Shown: positions 52,342 through 62,125 of the stretch, piece after piece
How the letters are laid out: every line of letters starts with the position of its first letter
Numbering within the stretch: the first letter of the stretch is position 1
Assembly (NCBI RefSeq): GCF_025965855.1
Contig: NZ_JAOPWB010000218.1
Span: 14,263 to 78,262, forward strand
Origin: Mycobacterium sp.
Lineage (GTDB): Bacteria; Actinomycetota; Actinomycetes; Mycobacteriales; Mycobacteriaceae
Direction: 5' to 3'
Length of the DNA stretch: 64,000 nt
Program-made: the position numbers and the translations under genes
Notes under the pieces: generated by a model
The model's input: the letters and a program-made list of their open reading frames with translations, nothing else
What the model was told of the DNA's origin: nothing
Databases searched by the model: none

Positions 52342-54243
52342 CTAATCGCCGGTGCGCGTGAATGTTTCGTCATAGTCCACGCTCCGTTGGCAGTCGGGCC
52401 GGCCCGACGACTCGTCGAGGTGATCGTGGCCGACGAGCTGCGTGATGGGATCCTGTGGTGGTTGCGGCAGCGCATACTGCCCGGTGGTTCTCGCGTAGAC
52501 CGCCCCGCCACAGCTTGGATCGTTGTCGTCGTGCTCGACGTGCAAGGTCCAGTTTCCGCCGTCATACACCAGCGGTGTATCAAGCGTTTTCGAGTGGAAA
52601 TAGCTCATGCACCGGTCGCCGGTGCGCAGGCAGTCGGTAATGACGGCCTGGTCCGCCTGCTGTGCGGGGATCCCTCTTTTGAACCTTCGCGTGGCGTGGT
52701 AGCGGCCGTGCAGCGCTTCGGCCGCCGACCCCACCCGCGGCGGTAGGGTGCTCGGGTCGGGGAGCCTAGTGATGTCGACGTCTCCGGAGCGGCTGAAGGT
52801 CACTGTCCGCCTTTCGTTGCAGGCGTTGGCCGAAGCCCCGCGATATTCGCCGGCGAGGGTGCCGTCCGGCCGCGCCTGAAGCGTCAACACCTGCCACACT
52901 TCGGCCGGGGTGTCTCGGCACTTGTCCGAGCTGAGGGTCACAGCCACCCAGCGCCCGTCTATCTCGTCGAAAACCGCGCTCGATGCGAGCCGCAGCTCGC
53001 CGCCGACGCGTTGCGCGGTCGCCCGGCAACCGGTCGGTCCGCATTCCGAGCGGACGTCGTACGTGTCCATTTCCGGACCCGCACCCGGACCCGGGACGTC
53101 GTCGAGGGTGGTGCCCTGGCCGAAGTGCACACGGTAGACACCGGTGAAGGGTCCGGTGTTCGGCGCCGCGGCCGCGGTATTTCCGGGCGCGGCGGCGGGA
53201 TTGTTCGCCGCGGTGCGGCCCGGGTCGTGGTGCCGGAGGAGTTTCACGCCCGCGAAGACACCACCGGCGACGACGAGCAAGGCGATGCCCGCCAGCGCGC
53301 CGATCAGCGCCCGGGGACGGCGCCGAGGCCGCATCGCGGGGATGGTTGCGTCGATCGCAGGTTGGGTGTCCGGGAAGGCGACGTCACCGTGCTGGCCGAA
53401 GCCCGGACCCAGCTCCCGGGCCAGTTGGTCGGCGAATTCCCGGCAGCTGCCGAACCGTTCGGATGGCTCCTTGGCCATCGCGGTGGCAAACACGGAATCC
53501 AGCGCGGCGAGCTCCGGCCGGCGGGCACCGATCGAGGGCGGGGCGGCGCCGATGTGCTGGCTGATCACCACGGCGGGGTTCGAGTCGGCGTATGGCGGCG
53601 CCCCGGTCAGCATGTGAAACGCGGTGCAGGCCAACGCATATTGATCGGCGCGCCCGTCGACCGGCTCGCCCTTCAACTGCTCGGGCGCGACATAGGCCAC
53701 CGTGCCGACCGTCATGTTGGTCGCGGTCAGTCCGGTCGCGTCATCGATGTGGCGCGCGAGCCCGAAGTCGGCGAGGTAAACCCGCCGCGCCTGACCGTCG
53801 GGGTCGGTCAACAAAATGTTGGCCGGCTTGACGTCGCGGTGCAGCAACCCTCGGCCGTGCGCGTAATCCAGCGCCGAGCCGACCGCCGTAATGATCGCCA
53901 CCACCTCTTCGAGTGGCATCCCGCCCGGGTGGCTTTCGCGCAACAGCCGGCCCGCATCGGTGCCGGCCACGTAATCCATCGAGATCCAGAACCGGCCATC
54001 CTCTTGGCCGCGGTCATGGATGGTGACGATGTGCGGATGAGACAACCCGGCGGCCAACTCGGCCTCACGCATGAAGCGGCCCCGAAACTCCGGATCGCCG
54101 GTCAGCTCCGCGGGCAGGACCTTCAGCGCATCCTCGCGCGGCAATCGTGGATGCGCCGCCAGGTACACCTGCCCCATCCCGCCCGCGCCCAACTCCCGCA
54201 CGATCTTGAACCCGGCAAACACCTGACCGCTCTCGAGCGACAT
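52342..54243 (-). CDS. Transmembrane Ser/Thr kinase with a PknI-like ectodomain (copy A)
   Basis: [21 protein letters not shown]; TM helix; Cys-containing ectodomain ending FTRTGD. Confidence 0.92.
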
Positions 54244-54258
54244 GGCCAAATCGTAGAT
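54241..54258 (-). promoter_or_regulatory. Putative leaderless promoter of kinase A
   Basis: ATCTACGAT-TTGGCC-ATG: TANNNT box 6 nt before the ATG; identical 18-mer at 56141-56158. Confidence 0.6.
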
Positions 54259-54319
54259 GCTGAAGCCGCAGCCGCACCCGCAATTCGCCCCGGACACGAC
54301 TCGCTGCCGCGCCTTCCCC

Positions 54320-56143
54320 CTAATCGCCGGTGCGCGTGAAGGTTTCGTCGAAGTCCGTGTTGAGCGCGCACGGCGCGGTCTGTTCCTGGTGAGCGCGGCC
54401 GGTGAGCTTCGCGATCGGATCCCCCGGCGGTTGAGGGAGCGGATACTGCCCGCTGGATTTCATGTGCGCTGTGTCGCCGGAATGCGGGCACGTGATGTCG
54501 GCGTCGACGTTCCAGGTCCAGCGTCCGCCTCCGAATACCAGCGGTTGGTCGGCCGATGGTTCGTGGAAGTAGCTCATGCAGCGATCACCGGTGCGCAGGC
54601 AGTCGGTCCCGACAGCGGTGTTCAACTGCTGCTGTGGGAGCCCGTTCGTGAAAGTCCGCATCAGGCGGTAGTGACCGCGCAGCCCCTGGGCCGGCGACAC
54701 CACCCGCGGCGGTTGGGTGCCCGGGTCGGGAAGGCTGTTGACGTCGACGTCGCCGGTTCGGGTGAAGGACACGGTGCGCTTGTTGGCGCAGGCGTTGGCG
54801 GCAGTCGTGGTGTACTCGCCGCCGAGGCCGCCGTCGGGGCGGGGGCGCAGCGTGAACACCTGCCAGAATTCCGCGGCTGCCTCGCGGCACTTATCCGGCC
54901 CGACGGTGACCGCCACCCAGGTCCCGCCGATCTGGTCGAACACCATCGTCGGTTGAGCGACGGTTTCCCCGCCAAGGCGGGACGCCGTCATTACGCAGCC
55001 GGCGGGGCGGCACACCGAGCGCAGCCCGTACGTGCTCGTCAGCGCGGGTGGCGCGCCGGCATCCGGGACGTCGTCGAGGGCGGTGACCGGCCCGAACTCG
55101 GCCCGATAGGTGCCCGTGACGGGACCCGCGGGCGGGGCCGGGTTGTGCTGTCCGGTGAGCTTCAGGGTCGCGACGACGCCGGCCGCGACGAGCGACGCGA
55201 TGCCCGCCAGGGCGGCGATGAGGACAGCGGGGCGGCGGGCCAGTTTCGGCCGCTGCAACGCAAGCACGGTCGCATCCAACGCCGGCTGGGGATGCGAGGG
55301 TGCCGCGCTGAGCTGCCGACCCAATTCCTGGGCGAACTCCCCGCAGCTGTTGAACCGGCCGGCAGGGTCCTTGGCCATCGCGGTGGCAAACACGGGATCC
55401 AGGCCCGTCAACTCCGGCCGGTGGGCACCGATCGACGGCGGCGGGGCGCTGACGTGTTGGCCGATGACGACCGCGAGGTTGGGGCCACCGTACGGCGGCG
55501 CGCCGGCCAGCAGGTGAAATGCGGTGCACGCCAAGGCATATTGATCGGCGCGGCCGTCGACGGACCCGGCCATCAACTGCTCGGGCGCCGCGTAGGCCAC
55601 CGTGCCCACCGCCATCTTCGTCGTGGTCAGCCCCGCCGCATCATCGACGCGTCGCGCGATGCCGAAGTCGGCCAAGAAAATTCGGCGCGGCTGGCCATCC
55701 GAATCGGTGAGGAGAATGTTGGCCGGCTTCACATCGCGGTGCAGCAAGCCTCGATGGTGGGCGTAATCGAGCGCCGACGCGACCGCGGTAACGATCGCCA
55801 TCGCGTCCTCGACCGGCATCCCGCCCGGGAATTGCTCACCCAACAAACGGGCCACATCGGTGCCGGCCACGTATTCCATCGAGATCCAGAACTGGCCTTC
55901 ATATTCACCGCGGTCGTGGATCCCCACGATGTGTGGATGAGACAGCCCGGCGGCCAACTCCGCTTCCCGCTCGAATCGCTCCCGGTACTGGAGATCGGCG
56001 GTGACTTCGGTCGGCAACACCTTGAGCGCGTCCTCGCGCGGCAACCGTGGGTGCCGGGCCAGGTACACCCGGCCCATGCCGCCAGAGCCCAGCACCCGCA
56101 GGATGGTGTATCCCGCAAACACCCGGCCGGTCTCAAGCGACAT
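54320..56143 (-). CDS. Transmembrane Ser/Thr kinase with a PknI-like ectodomain (copy B)
   Basis: [21 protein letters not shown]; close paralog of 52342-54243. Confidence 0.92.
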
Positions 56144-56158
56144 GGCCAAATCGTAGAT
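56141..56158 (-). promoter_or_regulatory. Putative leaderless promoter of kinase B
   Basis: Same 18-mer as 54241-54258. Confidence 0.6.
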
Positions 56159-56173: not shown

Positions 56174-57661
56174 TCAGGCGCTGTTGAGCAGGAGCATGAG
56201 CCCGTAGTCCATGTGGATCTGCTGATGGCAGTGCAGCAGCGACAGGCCGGGTTGGTCGGCGACGAAGTCGATCTCCATGCTCTGGTAACCGCCGAGCATC
56301 GCGACGTCCTTGCGCACGCCGGCGGTCGGCGTGCCGGCGACGCGGGTGATTTCAAAGGTGTGCCGGTGCAGGTGCATCGGGTGCAGGTCGTCGGCGGCGT
56401 TGCGGAAGCGCAGCCGATAGCGCTTGTCCCGCTGCAAATTGAGCACGGGCTGATTGCTGTCCATCGAAAACGCCGTGCCGTTGATCGTCCAGACGTTGAA
56501 GCCGTTGTCGGCGGCGTTGCGCTTCTCGATCAGCATCTCGATGGTTCGATCGGGCGGCGGCACGGGCGCGGGGCCGGGTGACGCGAACAGCCGGTAATCC
56601 CACTTGAACGGCGGGGGCGCCGCCCATTGCGGGTCGCCGCCGCGCCCGGCGTATTCCACGACCGCGCCCATTCCGTGGCCACGGTCGTCGTCGGAAAGGT
56701 CGCCCAGCACCCACACGCCCGGGTTCGTCATGTTGACGAACGCCGAAATGCGCTCGGCCGCACCGAGCCACAGCACCGGCACCGGCACCGGATTGGGCAC
56801 CGGGTTGCCGTCCAGCGCGATCACGTTGAAGGTATGGCCGGGCAAGGCCAGACTGCGGGTTTCGGTGGCGCTGCCGTTGAGGACATGCAACAGCACCCGT
56901 TGACCGGGTTGGACGCGGATGGGGTCGCCGTGGCCGAGCATGCGCCCGTTGACGGCGAATGCCGCGTAACCGACCTCGTAGCCATGTGGGTCGCCGCGGC
57001 CCAGCGAGGCCGTCATCGACGACTCGCCCTTCTCCTTGAGGTCGGGGTCCTGCTCGCCGGGCAGGAAATCGCTGGCCATGTCGCCCCCGCGGCTGAAACT
57101 GGGCTCGAATTCTTTGAGCGTCAAGAAGATCTCTTGGTCGTAGGCGCCCGGGCTCTGCTTGGGTTCGATGTAGACCGGGCCGACCAGGCCGCTGTACTGG
57201 CCGCGGGACAGATCGGCCCGCGGCACGACGTGGGTGTGATAGAAGCGGAAGCCCGACGGGCCCGGGACAAACGAAATGCGCCGCATACCGTGTGCCGGGA
57301 CGTAGGGCGTTCCCTCCTCGGCCGCGCCGTCGACGTCGACGCCCACCTGCTGTCCGTGCCAGTGCAGCTGCTCGGGGGAATCGGTGTCGTTGAAGATGTC
57401 CACCCACGTCCGTTGCCCCTCTTTGAACCGCAGCAGCGGGCCCGGGAACTGGCCGTTGTAGGTCAGGGTCGACGCGATGTGGTCCGGCGCCAACTCCACC
57501 GTTCCGGTGCCGATCCGCAGGGTGTAGTCGGGCCTGCCGTTGGGCGGGGCGGGCGGCGCGGTCCGCGAACAGGCCGCCGCGACGCCGGCGCCCCCGCTCG
57601 CGGTCATCAAGGCCAGCCCACTGCCTTGGAGGAATCGACGCCGGTCGAACGGCATGATCAT
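56174..57661 (-). CDS. Multicopper oxidase, Tat-exported lipoprotein
   Basis: DRRRFLQ twin-arginine motif, VAAAC lipobox; copper motifs HWHG, FYHTH, HPMHLH, HCHQQIH. Confidence 0.93.
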   Translation of the reverse strand: MIMPFDRRRFLQGSGLALMTASGGAGVAAACSRTAPPAPPNGRPDYTLRIGTGTVELAPDHIASTLTYNGQFPGPLLRFKEGQRTWVDIFNDTDSPEQLHWHGQQVGVDVDGAAEEGTPYVPAHGMRRISFVPGPSGFRFYHTHVVPRADLSRGQYSGLVGPVYIEPKQSPGAYDQEIFLTLKEFEPSFSRGGDMASDFLPGEQDPDLKEKGESSMTASLGRGDPHGYEVGYAAFAVNGRMLGHGDPIRVQPGQRVLLHVLNGSATETRSLALPGHTFNVIALDGNPVPNPVPVPVLWLGAAERISAFVNMTNPGVWVLGDLSDDDRGHGMGAVVEYAGRGGDPQWAAPPPFKWDYRLFASPGPAPVPPPDRTIEMLIEKRNAADNGFNVWTINGTAFSMDSNQPVLNLQRDKRYRLRFRNAADDLHPMHLHRHTFEITRVAGTPTAGVRKDVAMLGGYQSMEIDFVADQPGLSLLHCHQQIHMDYGLMLLLNSA

Positions 57662-58425
57662 CGCTCCCGAGGGGACGGGTGGAGAGCGAGAACGGGCAGC
57701 AGGAATTCGATGCGTTCATTCAGTTCGGCTGCCACGCGCCGAAATTCGGGGTAACTCGCCCTACCGGCGGCGACCGACGGGTCGGGCAGGCTCCAATGCA
57801 TCGCCGTGGCCACGCCATGGTCGCGGGCGTATTCGCGGACCTTGTCGCACAACGTGATCACGCAATCGAAGCGCCGACGGGCGACCGCGGCCAACGGCCG
57901 TGGCCGGCTGCCACCAAGGTCAATTCCGTACAGGTCACGCATGATCCGTACCGCGTTGGGATGTATCTGCGGTTTGGGATGACTGCCCGCGCTTGCGGCA
58001 CGGATGCGACCCCGCGTCTTCTCCCGCAGCAGCGCCTCGGCCATCGGCGAGCGCGCGCTATTGCCGGAACATAAAAACAGCACCGACCGGGCCTCGGATC
58101 GCACCGCCGGCTCGGCCTTGGGCACGGGCGCGAGCGCGGGGTGCAATGCGGTTGCCGCCCCGGCGAATTCCGCCGCGCACCTCGTCAAGTCCAGGTGGTA
58201 GTAGGTGTCGCGGGCATCGAAATTGCTGCGCCGCGCGTCGATGAGCCCCGCCAAGCGCAAGAGCCGCAGGTGGTACGAGACCAGGTTTTGCGGCTCGTCG
58301 ATGGCGGTGGCCAATTCCCGTACCCGGTGGTCGCCGGCCGCCAGTTCGGCCAGCAGCGCCCAGCGCACCGGGTGCGACGCCATCTGCATCAGCGGCGGAA
58401 CCACCGCCCGCTCGATTGCCGCCAC
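57658..58425 (-). CDS. ArsR-type HTH fused to an LMW-PTP/ArsC domain
   Basis: HPVRWALLAEL..HRVRELA..PQNLVSYHLRLLR; FLCSGNSARS (CX5R); HWSLPDP. Confidence 0.88.
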   Translation of the reverse strand: MAAIERAVVPPLMQMASHPVRWALLAELAAGDHRVRELATAIDEPQNLVSYHLRLLRLAGLIDARRSNFDARDTYYHLDLTRCAAEFAGAATALHPALAPVPKAEPAVRSEARSVLFLCSGNSARSPMAEALLREKTRGRIRAASAGSHPKPQIHPNAVRIMRDLYGIDLGGSRPRPLAAVARRRFDCVITLCDKVREYARDHGVATAMHWSLPDPSVAAGRASYPEFRRVAAELNERIEFLLPVLALHPSPRER

Positions 58426-58439
58426 CCTTCGGACAATAC

Positions 58440-58455
58440 ATCAAACAAGTTTGAT
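58440..58455. promoter_or_regulatory. Perfect palindrome in the ArsR-fusion/permease divergent spacer
   Basis: ATCAAAC-AA-GTTTGAT (7-2-7). Confidence 0.7.
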
Positions 58456-58483: not shown

Positions 58484-59764
58484 GTGCCCGAAAGCAACGC
58501 CGTGACAAACGATGAGCTCCGTCGAAGCCTGGGCGTGTTCGACGCGGTGGTGATCGGACTCGGCTCCATGATCGGCGCCGGCATCTTCGCGGCGCTGGGC
58601 CCCGCGGCACACGCCGCCGGCTCCGGGCTGCTCCTGGGCCTGGGGTTGGCGGCGGTGGTGGCCTACTGCAACGCCACCTCGTCCGCGCGGCTGGCCGCCC
58701 TCTATCCCGCCTCCGGCGGCACCTATCTGTATGGCCGCAAGCGGCTCGGCGATTTCTGGGGCTACTTGGCGGGTTGGGGCTTTGTCGTCGGCAAGACCGC
58801 CTCGTGCGCGGCGATGGCCTTGACCGTCGGCTCATACGCATGGCCGTCGCAGGCGCACCCGGTCGCCGTCGCCGCGGTGGTCGCGCTGACGGCGGTGAAC
58901 TACGCCGGGGTGCAGAAGTCGGCGTGGCTGACCCGCATCATCGTCGCGGTGGTCCTCGCGGTGCTGGCCGCAGTGGTCGTCGCCGTGTTCGTGTCTCGGA
59001 GCGTCAGCGCCGATCACCTGCACCTGGCGGGTGCCACCGTCGGCGGCGTCATCCAGGCCGCGGGCCTGCTGTTTTTCGCCTTTGCCGGCTATGCGCGCAT
59101 CGCCACGCTGGGCGAAGAGGTGCGCGATCCGGCGCGCACCATCCCACGGGCGATCCCCCTGGCACTGGCCATCGCCCTGGCCGTATACGCGCTGGTGGCG
59201 GTCGCGGCGCTCACCGCGCTGGGCCCCCGACGTCTCGCCGAGGCCTCCGCGCCGCTGTCCGAGGCGGTGCGGGCGGCGGGGACCGGCTGGCTGGCGCCCG
59301 TCGTGCAGGTGGGTGCGACCGTGGCGGCACTGGGCTCGCTGCTGGCACTGATTCTCGGGGTCTCGCGCACTACCTTGGCGATGGCGCGCGACCACCACTT
59401 CCCCCACGCGCTGACCGCCGTGCATCCGAGGTTCGGGGTGCCCCACCGCGCCGAGCTGCTGATCGGTGTCGTCGTGGCGGCGTTGGCCGCGACCGCCGAC
59501 CTGCGGGGGGCGATCGGTTTTTCCTCGTTCGCCGTGCTGATCTACTACGCGGTCGCCAACGCCTCCGCGTTCACCCTCCGGCCCGACGAGGGCCGGCCGC
59601 GCCGCGCGATCCCGGTGATCGGACTCGTCGGGTGCGTGGTCTTGGCGTGCGCGCTGCCGCTGTCTGCGGTGCTGTCGGGGACGACGGTGCTGGGCGTTGG
59701 CGTCGCGGCGTACGCGATTCGGCGCCTAACGCGCCAAGTGATGCGACCCGCGGATGACGCGTGA
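58484..59764 (+). CDS. APC-family (amino acid permease-like) transporter
   Basis: LRRSLGVFDAVVIGLGSMIGAGIF, FFAFAGYARIA; about 12 TM segments. Confidence 0.9.
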   Translation: MPESNAVTNDELRRSLGVFDAVVIGLGSMIGAGIFAALGPAAHAAGSGLLLGLGLAAVVAYCNATSSARLAALYPASGGTYLYGRKRLGDFWGYLAGWGFVVGKTASCAAMALTVGSYAWPSQAHPVAVAAVVALTAVNYAGVQKSAWLTRIIVAVVLAVLAAVVVAVFVSRSVSADHLHLAGATVGGVIQAAGLLFFAFAGYARIATLGEEVRDPARTIPRAIPLALAIALAVYALVAVAALTALGPRRLAEASAPLSEAVRAAGTGWLAPVVQVGATVAALGSLLALILGVSRTTLAMARDHHFPHALTAVHPRFGVPHRAELLIGVVVAALAATADLRGAIGFSSFAVLIYYAVANASAFTLRPDEGRPRRAIPVIGLVGCVVLACALPLSAVLSGTTVLGVGVAAYAIRRLTRQVMRPADDA

Positions 59765-59792: not shown

Positions 59793-59828
59793 GATTCGAT
59801 GAATGTTTATATAGAAGAATGTCGAATC
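59793..59828. promoter_or_regulatory. ArsR/SmtB-type operator overlapping the arsR start
   Basis: GATTCGA...TCGAATC outer dyad around ATATA; AT-rich island in GC-rich DNA. Confidence 0.6.
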
Positions 59829-60184
59829 AGGCACCTGCGTGTTGCCCGACACTCGGAGCGGCCGCCATGGATGAACCGCAGGCCGCGGATCTGGCGGCGA
59901 TGTTCAAGGCGTTGGGCGACCCCGTGCGCCTGCGGTTGATGAGCCTGATCGCCAGTCACCCCGGCGGCGAGGCCTGTGTCTGTGAAATATCGGCGACATT
60001 CGACGTCTCCCAGCCAACGATTTCCCATCACCTCAAGCTGCTGCGCTCCGCCGGGCTGCTGGACTGCGAGCGGCGGGGCACCTGGGTGTACTACTGGGTG
60101 ATCTCCTCGGCATTGCAGCAGCTTTCGGCGGTCTTACGTGTCGAGGACTGCCCGCCCGCGACCACTCCCGGGTGCGGTCCGTGA
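59819..60184 (+). CDS. arsR: ArsR repressor
   Basis: KALGDPVRL, ACVCE As(III) box, SQPTISHHLK; N-terminal CC. Confidence 0.92.
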   Translation: MSNQAPACCPTLGAAAMDEPQAADLAAMFKALGDPVRLRLMSLIASHPGGEACVCEISATFDVSQPTISHHLKLLRSAGLLDCERRGTWVYYWVISSALQQLSAVLRVEDCPPATTPGCGP

Positions 60185-61263
60185 CCGCGGCCCCGACGCG
60201 GGCGACCGACCCGGAACCGGTAGCGACCCGGCTCTCCACGCTGGACCGGTTCCTGCCGGTATGGATCGGCGTGGCGATGGCCGCCGGCCTGCTGCTGGGC
60301 CGACTCATTCCAGGTCTCGGATCGGCGTTGAGCGCCATTGCGGTCCAAGGAATTTCACTGCCAATCGCGATCGGCCTGCTGGTCATGATGTATCCGGTGT
60401 TGGCCAAAGTCCGCTACGACCGACTCGACGAGGTCACCGCCGACCGCAGCCTGATGGTGAGCTCGTTGCTGCTCAACTGGCTGATCGGGCCCGCGGTGAT
60501 GTTCACCCTGGCGTGGCTGTTGCTGGCGGATCTGCCCGAGTATCGCACGGGGCTGATCATCGTCGGTCTGGCGCGCTGCATCGCGATGGTCATCATCTGG
60601 AACGACCTCGCCCGAGGCGACCGCGAAGCCGCAGCCGTGCTGGTCGCGCTGAACTCGCTGTTTCAGGTCGCCATGTTCGCCGCACTGGGCTGGTTCTACC
60701 TGTCGGTGCTGCCCGGCTGGCTGGGCCTCCCGCAAACCGGGATCGACGTCTCGCCGCGCCAGATCGGCGAATCCGTGCTCATCTTCCTCGGCGTTCCGCT
60801 GCTCGCCGGATACCTGTCGCGCCGCCTCGGTGAACGGCTCAAGGGCCGGCACTGGTACGAGACCCGGTTCCTGGCCCGCATCGGGCCGTGGGCGTTGTAT
60901 GGGTTGCTGTTCACCATCGTCATCCTGTTCGCCCTGCAGGGCCACCAAATCACCTCCCGGCCATGGGATGTCGCCCGCATCGCGATCCCACTGCTGGCCT
61001 ACTTCGCCGTCATGTGGGCCGGCGGATATGCCCTTGGACTCGTACTCCGGCTCGGCTACGCCCGCACCACGACGCTGGCGTTCACCGCCGCCGGTAACAA
61101 TTTCGAATTGGCGATCGCCGTGGCGATTGTCACCTACGGCGCCGCGTCGGGGCAGGCCCTGGCCGGGGTCGTCGGACCCTTGATCGAAGTGCCCGTGCTT
61201 GTCGGGCTGGTCTACGTTTCCCTCGCGCTGCGTCCCCGCCTGTTCCGAACCGAGCCAGACTGA
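60181..61263 (+). CDS. acr3: Arsenite efflux transporter Acr3
   Basis: LSTLDRFLPVWI, GLARCIAMV, AGNNFELAIAVA, GPLIEVP. Confidence 0.95.
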   Translation: MTAAPTRATDPEPVATRLSTLDRFLPVWIGVAMAAGLLLGRLIPGLGSALSAIAVQGISLPIAIGLLVMMYPVLAKVRYDRLDEVTADRSLMVSSLLLNWLIGPAVMFTLAWLLLADLPEYRTGLIIVGLARCIAMVIIWNDLARGDREAAAVLVALNSLFQVAMFAALGWFYLSVLPGWLGLPQTGIDVSPRQIGESVLIFLGVPLLAGYLSRRLGERLKGRHWYETRFLARIGPWALYGLLFTIVILFALQGHQITSRPWDVARIAIPLLAYFAVMWAGGYALGLVLRLGYARTTTLAFTAAGNNFELAIAVAIVTYGAASGQALAGVVGPLIEVPVLVGLVYVSLALRPRLFRTEPD

Positions 61264-61276
61264 GGAGCCGTCGCCG

Positions 61277-62125
61277 ATGGCCGACAAACCCAGCGTCCTG
61301 TTCGTCTGCGTCCATAACGCCGGCCGCTCGCAGATGGCCGCCGCCTTGCTGAGCCGCATGGCCGGAGAGCGCATCGAAGTCCGCTCCGCGGGAACCGAAC
61401 CCGCCGGTGAGGTCAACCCTGTCGCCGTCGCAGCCATGGCCGAACTCGGTGTTGACATCGCCGCGGCCACCCCCACAATCCTCACCACTGACGCGGTGCA
61501 GATCAGCGACGTCGTGATCACGATGGGCTGCGGTGACACCTGCCCCTACTTCCCGGGAGTGTCCTACCGCGACTGGCAACTGCCCGACCCCGCCGGTCAA
61601 CCCCTGGCCACCGTGCGCGCGATCCGCGACGACATCGCCGACCGCGTCCGGGCCTTGATCACCGAGCTCGTGCCCACGACAGCCCCGCACCCAGAGGAAG
61701 GACCCACCATGTCGCGTGTGCAGTTAGCCCTCAACGTCGACGACCTCGACGAGGCAATCGCGTTTTACTCGAAGCTGTTCAACACCGAGCCGGCGAAGGT
61801 CAAACCCGGCTACGCGAACTTCGCCGTCTCCGAGCCCCCGCTCAAGCTCGTGCTGCTCGAGAACCCGGGCCACGGCGGCACCCTCAACCACCTCGGCGTC
61901 GAAGTCGCCTCCAGCGACACCGTGCACACCGAAATCGCCCGGCTCACCGAGCGGGGGCTCGTCACCGAAGAGGAGATGAACACCACCTGTTGCTTCGCGA
62001 CCCAGGACAAAGTTTGGGTCACCGGGCCCGGCGGCGAACGCTGGGAGGTCTACACCGTCATAGTCGACTCCGAGGCCTTCGGACCAAGCACCGGCGAAGC
62101 CGACGAAGCCTGCTGCCAGGCGTAG
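61277..62125 (+). CDS. arsC-arsI: In-frame ArsC (arsenate reductase) - ArsI/CadI (VOC-fold) fusion ORF
   Basis: VLFVCVHNAGRSQMA..TMGCGDTCP, then with no stop MSRVQLALNVDDL..TTCCFATQDKVWV..WEVY..CC. Internal GAGGAAGGA RBS and ATG at 61709. Confidence 0.88.
   Translation: MADKPSVLFVCVHNAGRSQMAAALLSRMAGERIEVRSAGTEPAGEVNPVAVAAMAELGVDIAAATPTILTTDAVQISDVVITMGCGDTCPYFPGVSYRDWQLPDPAGQPLATVRAIRDDIADRVRALITELVPTTAPHPEEGPTMSRVQLALNVDDLDEAIAFYSKLFNTEPAKVKPGYANFAVSEPPLKLVLLENPGHGGTLNHLGVEVASSDTVHTEIARLTERGLVTEEEMNTTCCFATQDKVWVTGPGGERWEVYTVIVDSEAFGPSTGEADEACCQA

Follow-up and report, generated by a model that had tools for sequence, protein, structure and literature searches.

What does a multicopper oxidase do when its gene lies in an arsenic resistance island? 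The question is raised by the gene at 56174-57661 in a 64,000-nucleotide stretch of a Mycobacterium sp. genome (contig NZ_JAOPWB010000218.1, positions 14,263 to 78,262; the whole stretch is referred to as the window). Its product, P0001, is encoded directly behind a regulator that joins an ArsR-type helix-turn-helix (HTH) to an ArsC-like domain, and the initial annotation proposed that the enzyme oxidizes As(III), Sb(III) or methylarsenite (MAs(III)) at the cell surface. Our analysis points elsewhere. We find that P0001 belongs to a bacterial family in which the axial position of the type 1 (T1) copper is held by Phe or Leu in several phyla, and that the arsenic-related regulator is confined to one mycobacterial clade. 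We tentatively propose, at a probability of roughly 45%, that the protein is a one-electron oxidase of metal cations or of a quinol or phenol, induced by arsenate or by redox stress, that would act on arsenic only indirectly.

Identity and export of the oxidase

The oxidase is encoded by a 495-residue open reading frame on the minus strand; the plus-strand frame over the same interval contains a stop and has zero Pfam matches, which assigns the gene to the minus strand. Pfam domains PF07732 (Cu-oxidase_3), PF00394 (Cu-oxidase) and PF07731 (Cu-oxidase_2) each score above their cut-offs, and an AlphaFold2 model built on an alignment of 48 orthologs (predicted local distance difference test, 84.5; predicted template modelling score, 0.86) is all-beta and falls into three domains. 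Domain matches and model both give the three cupredoxin domains of a three-domain multicopper oxidase. When the model was searched against the PDB with Foldseek, all 50 of the top 50 matches were multicopper oxidases, led by 6VOW and followed by a Thermus laccase, Fet3p and fungal laccases.

The four copper motifs (HxH, HxH, HxxHxH and HCHxxxH) provide the expected ten His and one Cys, and all eleven residues (H100, H102, H142, H144, H427, H430, H432, H477, C478, H479 and H483) are invariant over 48 orthologs. On the minus strand they are encoded at 57356-57364 (HWH, with His100 and His102) and 57230-57238 (HTH, with His142 and His144), both invariant in both ortholog alignments; at 56366-56383 (HPMHLH, with the T1 ligand His427 and with His430 and His432, invariant columns that follow an invariant Asp424-Asp425 pair); and at 56195-56233, where the C-terminus ends in HCHQQIHMDYGLM. 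This last motif holds His477, Cys478, His479, the T1 ligand His483 and the axial Leu488, as read from the translation, the homologue alignments and the tree.

The N-terminus (57566-57661, minus strand) carries a signal for twin-arginine translocation (Tat), with RRRFLQ at residues 7-12, and then a putative lipobox Cys, Cys31, which follows an Ala/Gly-rich stretch and is directly preceded by Ala-Ala-Ala. A twin-arginine motif followed by a lipobox Cys is the pattern of a Tat-exported lipoprotein, and it is kept among 121 close homologues (78-91% identity): 119 have the N-terminal Cys after Ala/Gly and 92 have the RR motif. The lipobox itself is weak, its -3 position being variable. The oxidase is thus probably exported by Tat and lipid-anchored at the cell surface, and the earlier description of a Tat-lipoprotein multicopper oxidase with a non-coordinating axial residue is borne out by the domains, RRRF, Cys31 and Leu488, with the lipid anchor graded as probable. 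Methionine makes up 2.8% of the mature protein, and the richest 40-residue segment, which is the C-terminal motif itself, has four; by this measure of Met content we found no Met-rich lid or segment over the T1 site.

The closest solved structures are 6VOW and 6VOX (Pseudomonas thermotolerans and P. parafulva), the best match both in sequence (E 1.7e-33) and in fold (first in Foldseek). They share the three-domain architecture and the HCHxxxHMxxGLM ending (HMETGLM), in which an axial Leu is followed by Met; an axial Leu is therefore not unprecedented in bacteria. They differ in being only ~25% identical to P0001, in lacking an insert present at residues 193-227, in not being mycobacterial and in having no known ars context. 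A search of the accessible literature on the function of 6VOW and 6VOX and on the C-terminal motif strings found nothing relevant. Fungal laccases and Fet3p likewise share the fold and a non-coordinating axial Leu or Phe, but are ~20% identical, eukaryotic and glycosylated. CueO and CopA resemble P0001 in being bacterial multicopper oxidases of three domains that are exported by Tat and take part in the response to metal stress; orthology to them is ruled out by scores far under the NCBIfam cut-offs (94.5 against 525 for NF008205; 115.4 against 479 for TIGR01480), by the missing Met-rich segment and by an axial Leu in place of Met.

MmcO (Rv0846c) of Mycobacterium tuberculosis is also a mycobacterial multicopper oxidase with a Tat signal; it is membrane-associated and linked to protection against oxidative stress (PMC12149110). 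It is nevertheless a different paralogue, and orthology of P0001 to it is excluded by a separate MmcO-like gene in the same genome, which lies on another contig (C357, L001:1415-2980), has an axial Met and ends in HCHNTYHQEAGM. We also take MmcO to belong to the copper-responsive RicR regulon rather than to an operon with an ArsR fusion. The MmcO-like gene of this genome is split across two reading frames near L001 position 1990, and is either a frameshifted pseudogene or the product of an assembly error in the 362-contig draft.

The axial T1 position across the family

The initial annotation had placed a Leu five residues after the last His, where Met stands in CueO and CotA. This reading is upheld: Leu488 (codon 56198-56200) is the fifth residue after His483 and aligns in the PDB alignment with the first Met of the Thermus laccase GMM. 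From these alignments we assign Leu488 to the axial T1 position, where it would be non-coordinating.

The site is not peculiar to this genome. Among the close homologues the axial residue is Leu in 114, Phe in seven and Met in none; 46 diverse orthologs have Phe (40) or Leu (six). Relatives of the oxidase occur in at least 586 species-level genomes of seven phyla by genome scan, and the best 80 loci of that scan, 61-90% identical to the query, were compared in detail. They come from Mycobacterium, Streptomyces, Rhodanobacteraceae and other Gammaproteobacteria, Alphaproteobacteria, Acidobacteriota, Verrucomicrobiota, Bacteroidota and Dormibacterota. All 121 close homologues and all 80 loci have a residue other than Met at this site, which argues that it is not a chance feature. 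Met appears at greater distance: among the 34 representatives of 50%-identity clusters that carry the motif, Phe is seen in 23, Leu in five and Met in seven, and the Met cases are the most distant. Some full-length relatives with Tat signals from the search of representatives (P0248, P0251, P0274, P0278, P0281, P0294 and P0308) have a decayed HCHxxxH motif, for example CCRQLHR, SSRQLYR or ACRRQLQR, and are probably copper-less derivatives of the family resembling FtsP/SufI.

All of the non-mycobacterial orthologs among the 80 loci have an axial Phe, and those in six other phyla are 61-69% identical to P0001. In a maximum-likelihood tree, Streptomyces and Mycobacterium group together (support 100/99). 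Within Mycobacterium, Phe is found on the three basal branches, and Leu marks a crown clade of 19 members (100/99), apart from one reversal. The axial residue would then have been Phe ancestrally, with a single change from Phe to Leu at the base of the crown Mycobacterium clade, and the Leu/Phe site is a family-wide trait older than any arsenic link. The level of 61-69% identity, held over seven phyla (L030-L088), indicates extensive horizontal transfer of the oxidase gene; the hosts of these loci are mostly acid-soil and peat taxa.

A regulator coupled to the oxidase

Immediately upstream on the same strand, at 57658-58425, lies P0002, an ArsR-type HTH (HTH_5/HTH_20) fused to an ArsC-like LMWPc domain whose closest PDB chains are ArsC-type reductases. 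The two genes meet at gagcgATGAtcATG, where the ATG of the oxidase overlaps the TGA of the regulator. The earlier view that this overlap makes them one operon holds up well: stop and start overlap or abut in at least 11 of the 14 loci that bear the regulator, and a junction that recurs to this extent is not due to chance. We conclude from this arrangement that the oxidase is predicted to belong to the transcription unit of the ArsR fusion. Scans for promoters and terminators gave nothing above shuffle expectation.

The pairing is specific to one clade. In 15 of the 19 crown-clade Mycobacterium loci the regulator gene immediately precedes the oxidase. The basal mycobacterial loci lack it, and it is upstream in none of the 59 loci outside Mycobacterium; a general link between the oxidase family and arsenic genes is ruled out by this last count. 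Acquisition of the regulator falls on the same branch of the tree as the change from Phe to Leu. When 150 genomes of the genus were sampled, 30 had the oxidase and 16 an ortholog of the regulator; 12 of these 16 directly adjoin the oxidase and two more are at contig ends. The regulator is therefore better seen as a dedicated partner of the oxidase than as a general ars regulator.

What the regulator senses is suggested by its cysteines. Across 23 orthologs, Cys83 at the end of the HTH domain, a P-loop of the form Cys119-X5-Arg125-Ser, Cys193 and Asp215 are invariant. We searched the HTH of P0002 for an As(III)-binding Cys cluster, either the CVC of helix alpha-3 or the alternatives of CgArsR and AfArsR, and found none: Cys83 is the only Cys of the domain. 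Nor does P0002 qualify as a thioredoxin-coupled ArsC of the low-molecular-weight protein tyrosine phosphatase (LMW-PTP) type. It does not reach the equivalog cut-offs, and 23 of 23 aligned orthologs are without the third, resolving Cys of such enzymes; the two further Cys of the thioredoxin-coupled type are Cys82 and Cys89 in pI258 numbering. ArsR-ArsC fusions with the same combination of an ArsR HTH and an ArsC of the LMW-PTP type have been described in Actinobacteria (the C4 and C7 groups), and the ArsRC fusion of Paracoccus has served as a sensor that responds to As(V) (PMC6514093, PMC11672702). P0002 differs from these in having neither the As(III)-binding Cys cluster nor the third ArsC Cys, and in that its orthologs are rarely found away from the oxidase. 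Because a separate, canonical ArsR with a CVC site heads the arsR-ACR3-arsC/arsI genes of the island, the fusion regulator seems to read a different signal. The most economical account of these features is that the P-loop would react with arsenate, or with an oxidant, to give a Cys119-Cys193 disulfide.

The regulator gene is separated from a divergent gene by a 58-bp intergenic region, and this region holds a perfect palindrome, ATCAAAC-AA-GTTTGAT (58440-58455), as a candidate operator. The core, ATCAA-N6-TTGATGTAT, is identical across 15 loci that differ in the bases around it. The palindrome occurs once in the 6.15-Mb genome, and a wider regulon is excluded by this single site. The divergent gene (58484-59764, plus strand) encodes an APC-family permease of amino-acid type (Pfam AA_permease_2) and is syntenic in 13 Mycobacterium loci. 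Given its conservation and its position between the two genes, the palindrome is a probable operator of both divergent units. A Streptomyces locus (L036:6235-7446) has an APC permease 75% identical to that of the window, likewise divergent beside the oxidase and with no ArsR fusion, and the link between permease and oxidase may be older than the regulator.

Gene contexts outside the mycobacterial clade

At the 59 oxidase loci outside Mycobacterium we found no ars neighbours; an LMWPc gene lies 1-2.5 kb away in two of them. The most frequent neighbour across the 80 loci is DoxX, which is directly upstream on the same strand in nine and nearby in ~21. The chromate exporter ChrA accompanies the oxidase in 12 loci, in many cases with a stop codon that overlaps the next start, and the oxidase family is translationally coupled to it in Gammaproteobacteria, Verrucomicrobiota and Acidobacteriota. 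PadR adjoins the oxidase in ~7 loci. Whole runs of PadR, DoxX, oxidase and ChrA, with overlapping or abutting genes, are seen at L071:1185-4730 and also at L081, L078, L054, L073, L051 and L087.

Smaller groups of loci have pyrroloquinoline quinone (PQQ) dehydrogenases, haem c-fused sugar dehydrogenases, or MFS or HlyD-type efflux genes. Haem c-fused glucose/sorbosone dehydrogenases or PQQ dehydrogenases stand directly upstream of the oxidase in Acidobacteriota (L040:6302-7957, L055 and L060; L062, L064, L066 and L084), and these dehydrogenases may be protein electron donors of the oxidase. Genes of aromatic catabolism do not recur next to the oxidase among these loci. The presence of ChrA, DoxX, PadR, MFS and HlyD-type efflux genes points to metal(loid) or redox stress rather than to aromatic catabolism.

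The arsenic island and other neighbouring genes

The oxidase unit lies within an arsenic island whose arsR-ACR3-arsC/arsI genes begin 1.4 kb away on the plus strand. The canonical ArsR with the CVC site for As(III) (59819-60184), which controls ACR3, is followed by the ACR3 arsenite efflux transporter itself (60172-61263; TIGR00832, 438 bits against a cut-off of 283). Next comes a three-Cys ArsC fused to an ArsI/CadI VOC domain (61277-62125), as identified by domain searches; ArsC and ArsI/CadI VOC also share one frame in L026 and appear as two adjacent matches in other mycobacterial loci. In three mycobacterial arsenic islands (L015, L020 and L026), arsR and the APC permease gene flank a DoxX gene that lies ~2 kb upstream of the oxidase; the association with DoxX therefore recurs within the ars-linked clade too.

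Downstream of the oxidase, 24 bp away and co-oriented with it, is a Ser/Thr protein kinase gene (54320-56149, minus strand; domain searches). No terminator-like site was found between the two, and the kinase is possibly on the same transcript as the oxidase. A second Ser/Thr protein kinase (52342-54297, minus strand) was identified by domain searches and synteny. The kinases are paralogous, the gaps in this run of genes are 24 and 22 bp, and one kinase has an extracellular domain like that of PknI/Rv2253. Synteny of the kinases is limited to the closest subclade (L009, L011-L013 and L027).

Proposed function and alternatives

We propose the following sequence of events. The oxidase, a member of a family spread horizontally among soil bacteria and marked by a non-coordinating axial Phe or Leu at the T1 copper, would be produced from a two-gene unit with coupled translation, in which its gene follows that of the ArsR-HTH/ArsC-like repressor. 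The repressor would bind the ATCAA-N6-TTGAT palindrome and so control the oxidase together with the divergent APC permease. It would be released once arsenate had reacted with its ArsC-like domain, or the domain had been oxidized, via Cys119 and Cys193. The oxidase would then act outside the membrane in one-electron steps, with Fe(II), Mn(II), Cu(I) or quinol- or phenol-type donors as its likely substrates, and we infer this range from the missing Met-rich lid, the Asp424-Asp425 pair and the gene neighbours. Under oxyanion stress, such activity would restrain redox cycling; arsenic would be affected only indirectly, through the Fe(III) or Mn(III,IV) products. The fallback offered in the initial annotation, that Fe or Mn oxidation traps arsenic, is compatible with these data. 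The invariant Asp424-Asp425 pair, three and two residues before the T1 ligand His427, suggests a cation as the substrate.

Several points weigh against this proposal. The register of the Asp pair differs from that of Fet3p, whose carboxylates hydrogen-bonded to T1 His ligands we take to be Glu185, Asp283 and Asp409; Asp409 of Fet3p and Asp439 of CueO are presumably both at the -4 position, and Asp424-Asp425 is not. The P-loop Cys of the regulator could answer peroxide or electrophiles and not arsenate. The contexts outside Mycobacterium are heterogeneous, and most loci have no informative neighbour. Finally, the axial Phe or Leu and the PadR and DoxX neighbours fit a laccase or a quinol oxidase equally well.

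This last point leads to the alternative that survives best. The family could be a bacterial counterpart of the high-potential fungal laccases that oxidizes phenolics or humics, or (mena)quinol by way of a DoxX-type membrane protein, in acidic soils, the regulator being a lineage-specific rewiring. A non-coordinating axial Phe or Leu is regarded as a hallmark of fungal laccases that raises the T1 potential, and exchange of Leu for Met in a Botrytis laccase lowered the potential by ~140 mV (PMC4220974). No Met-rich lid covers the site in P0001, DoxX and PadR recur beside the gene at the frequencies given above, and the hosts are mostly from acid-soil or peat groups. However, genes of aromatic catabolism do not recur beside the oxidase, PadR and DoxX are broad families, the oxidation of menaquinol needs no high-potential T1 site, and the closest operon partners in this genome are related to arsenic. 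We consider a laccase or quinol oxidase of this kind doubtful in its own right, and nearly as likely as the oxidase of cations or quinol/phenol donors that we favor.

A broader proposal is that a high-potential oxidase family has been recruited repeatedly to oxyanion-resistance operons, under the ArsR/ArsC-like regulator in Mycobacterium and by translational coupling with ChrA in Proteobacteria, Verrucomicrobiota and Acidobacteriota. Together with DoxX, at the surface of the membrane, it would shift the redox speciation of toxic extracellular metalloids directly or via Mn(III)/Fe(III). We regard this as improbable. If true, it would amount to a copper-based redox detoxification of arsenic and antimony (or chromium), distinct from that of the Mo-pterin and flavin enzymes.

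The hypothesis with which the locus was first annotated, that the enzyme itself converts As(III), Sb(III) or methylarsenite at the cell surface into pentavalent species that enter cells less readily, does not fare well. It draws on the coupling to the ArsR/ArsC-like regulator, on the surrounding island with ACR3 and ArsC-ArsI, on the coincidence of the change from Phe to Leu with the gain of the regulator on a single branch, and on a T1 potential that is probably high. Yet a T1 copper works by single-electron, outer-sphere transfer, whereas oxidation of As(III) is a two-electron transfer of oxygen, and direct oxidation of As(III) at the T1 copper is unlikely for this reason. Known biology oxidizes As(III) with the Mo-pterin enzymes AioAB and ArxAB or with the flavoprotein ArsH; a molybdopterin or Rieske domain was found neither in the oxidase, which is cupredoxin only, nor in the surrounding genes that were scanned. 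The Leu/Phe site is shared with the whole family, the 59 orthologous loci elsewhere, six other phyla among them, have no ars neighbours, and the fused regulator has no As(III) site. A literature search did not turn up an arsenite-oxidizing multicopper oxidase. Taken together, these points leave a very low probability for direct oxidation.

Equally improbable is an electron sink, in which the protein would be an auxiliary, non-pumping terminal oxidase that reduces O2 with electrons from periplasmic cytochrome c domains or PQQ dehydrogenases: haem c-fused glucose/sorbosone dehydrogenases are directly upstream in three loci and PQQ dehydrogenases in four, but these are a minority, and neither the window nor the Mycobacterium clade has a partner of this kind.

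Significance

The enzyme class is already known, and an axial Leu has a structural precedent. Three aspects seem not to have been described before: how widely and how firmly the Phe/Leu trait is kept in a bacterial family that crosses phyla, the dedicated ArsR/ArsC-like regulator with its candidate operator, and the repeated linkage of the oxidase to oxyanion-resistance genes. Bacterial laccases have been engineered toward non-coordinating axial residues with mixed success; a natural bacterial family with Phe or Leu at this position provides ready scaffolds and a test of the extent to which the axial residue controls the potential in a bacterial fold. With no As(III) site, the regulator is a tractable candidate for a switch that senses arsenate or thiol redox state and that comes with a defined candidate operator. 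More broadly, the recurrent pairing of these oxidases with arsenic and chromate determinants suggests an unrecognized, extracytoplasmic and copper-dependent arm of oxyanion stress defence.

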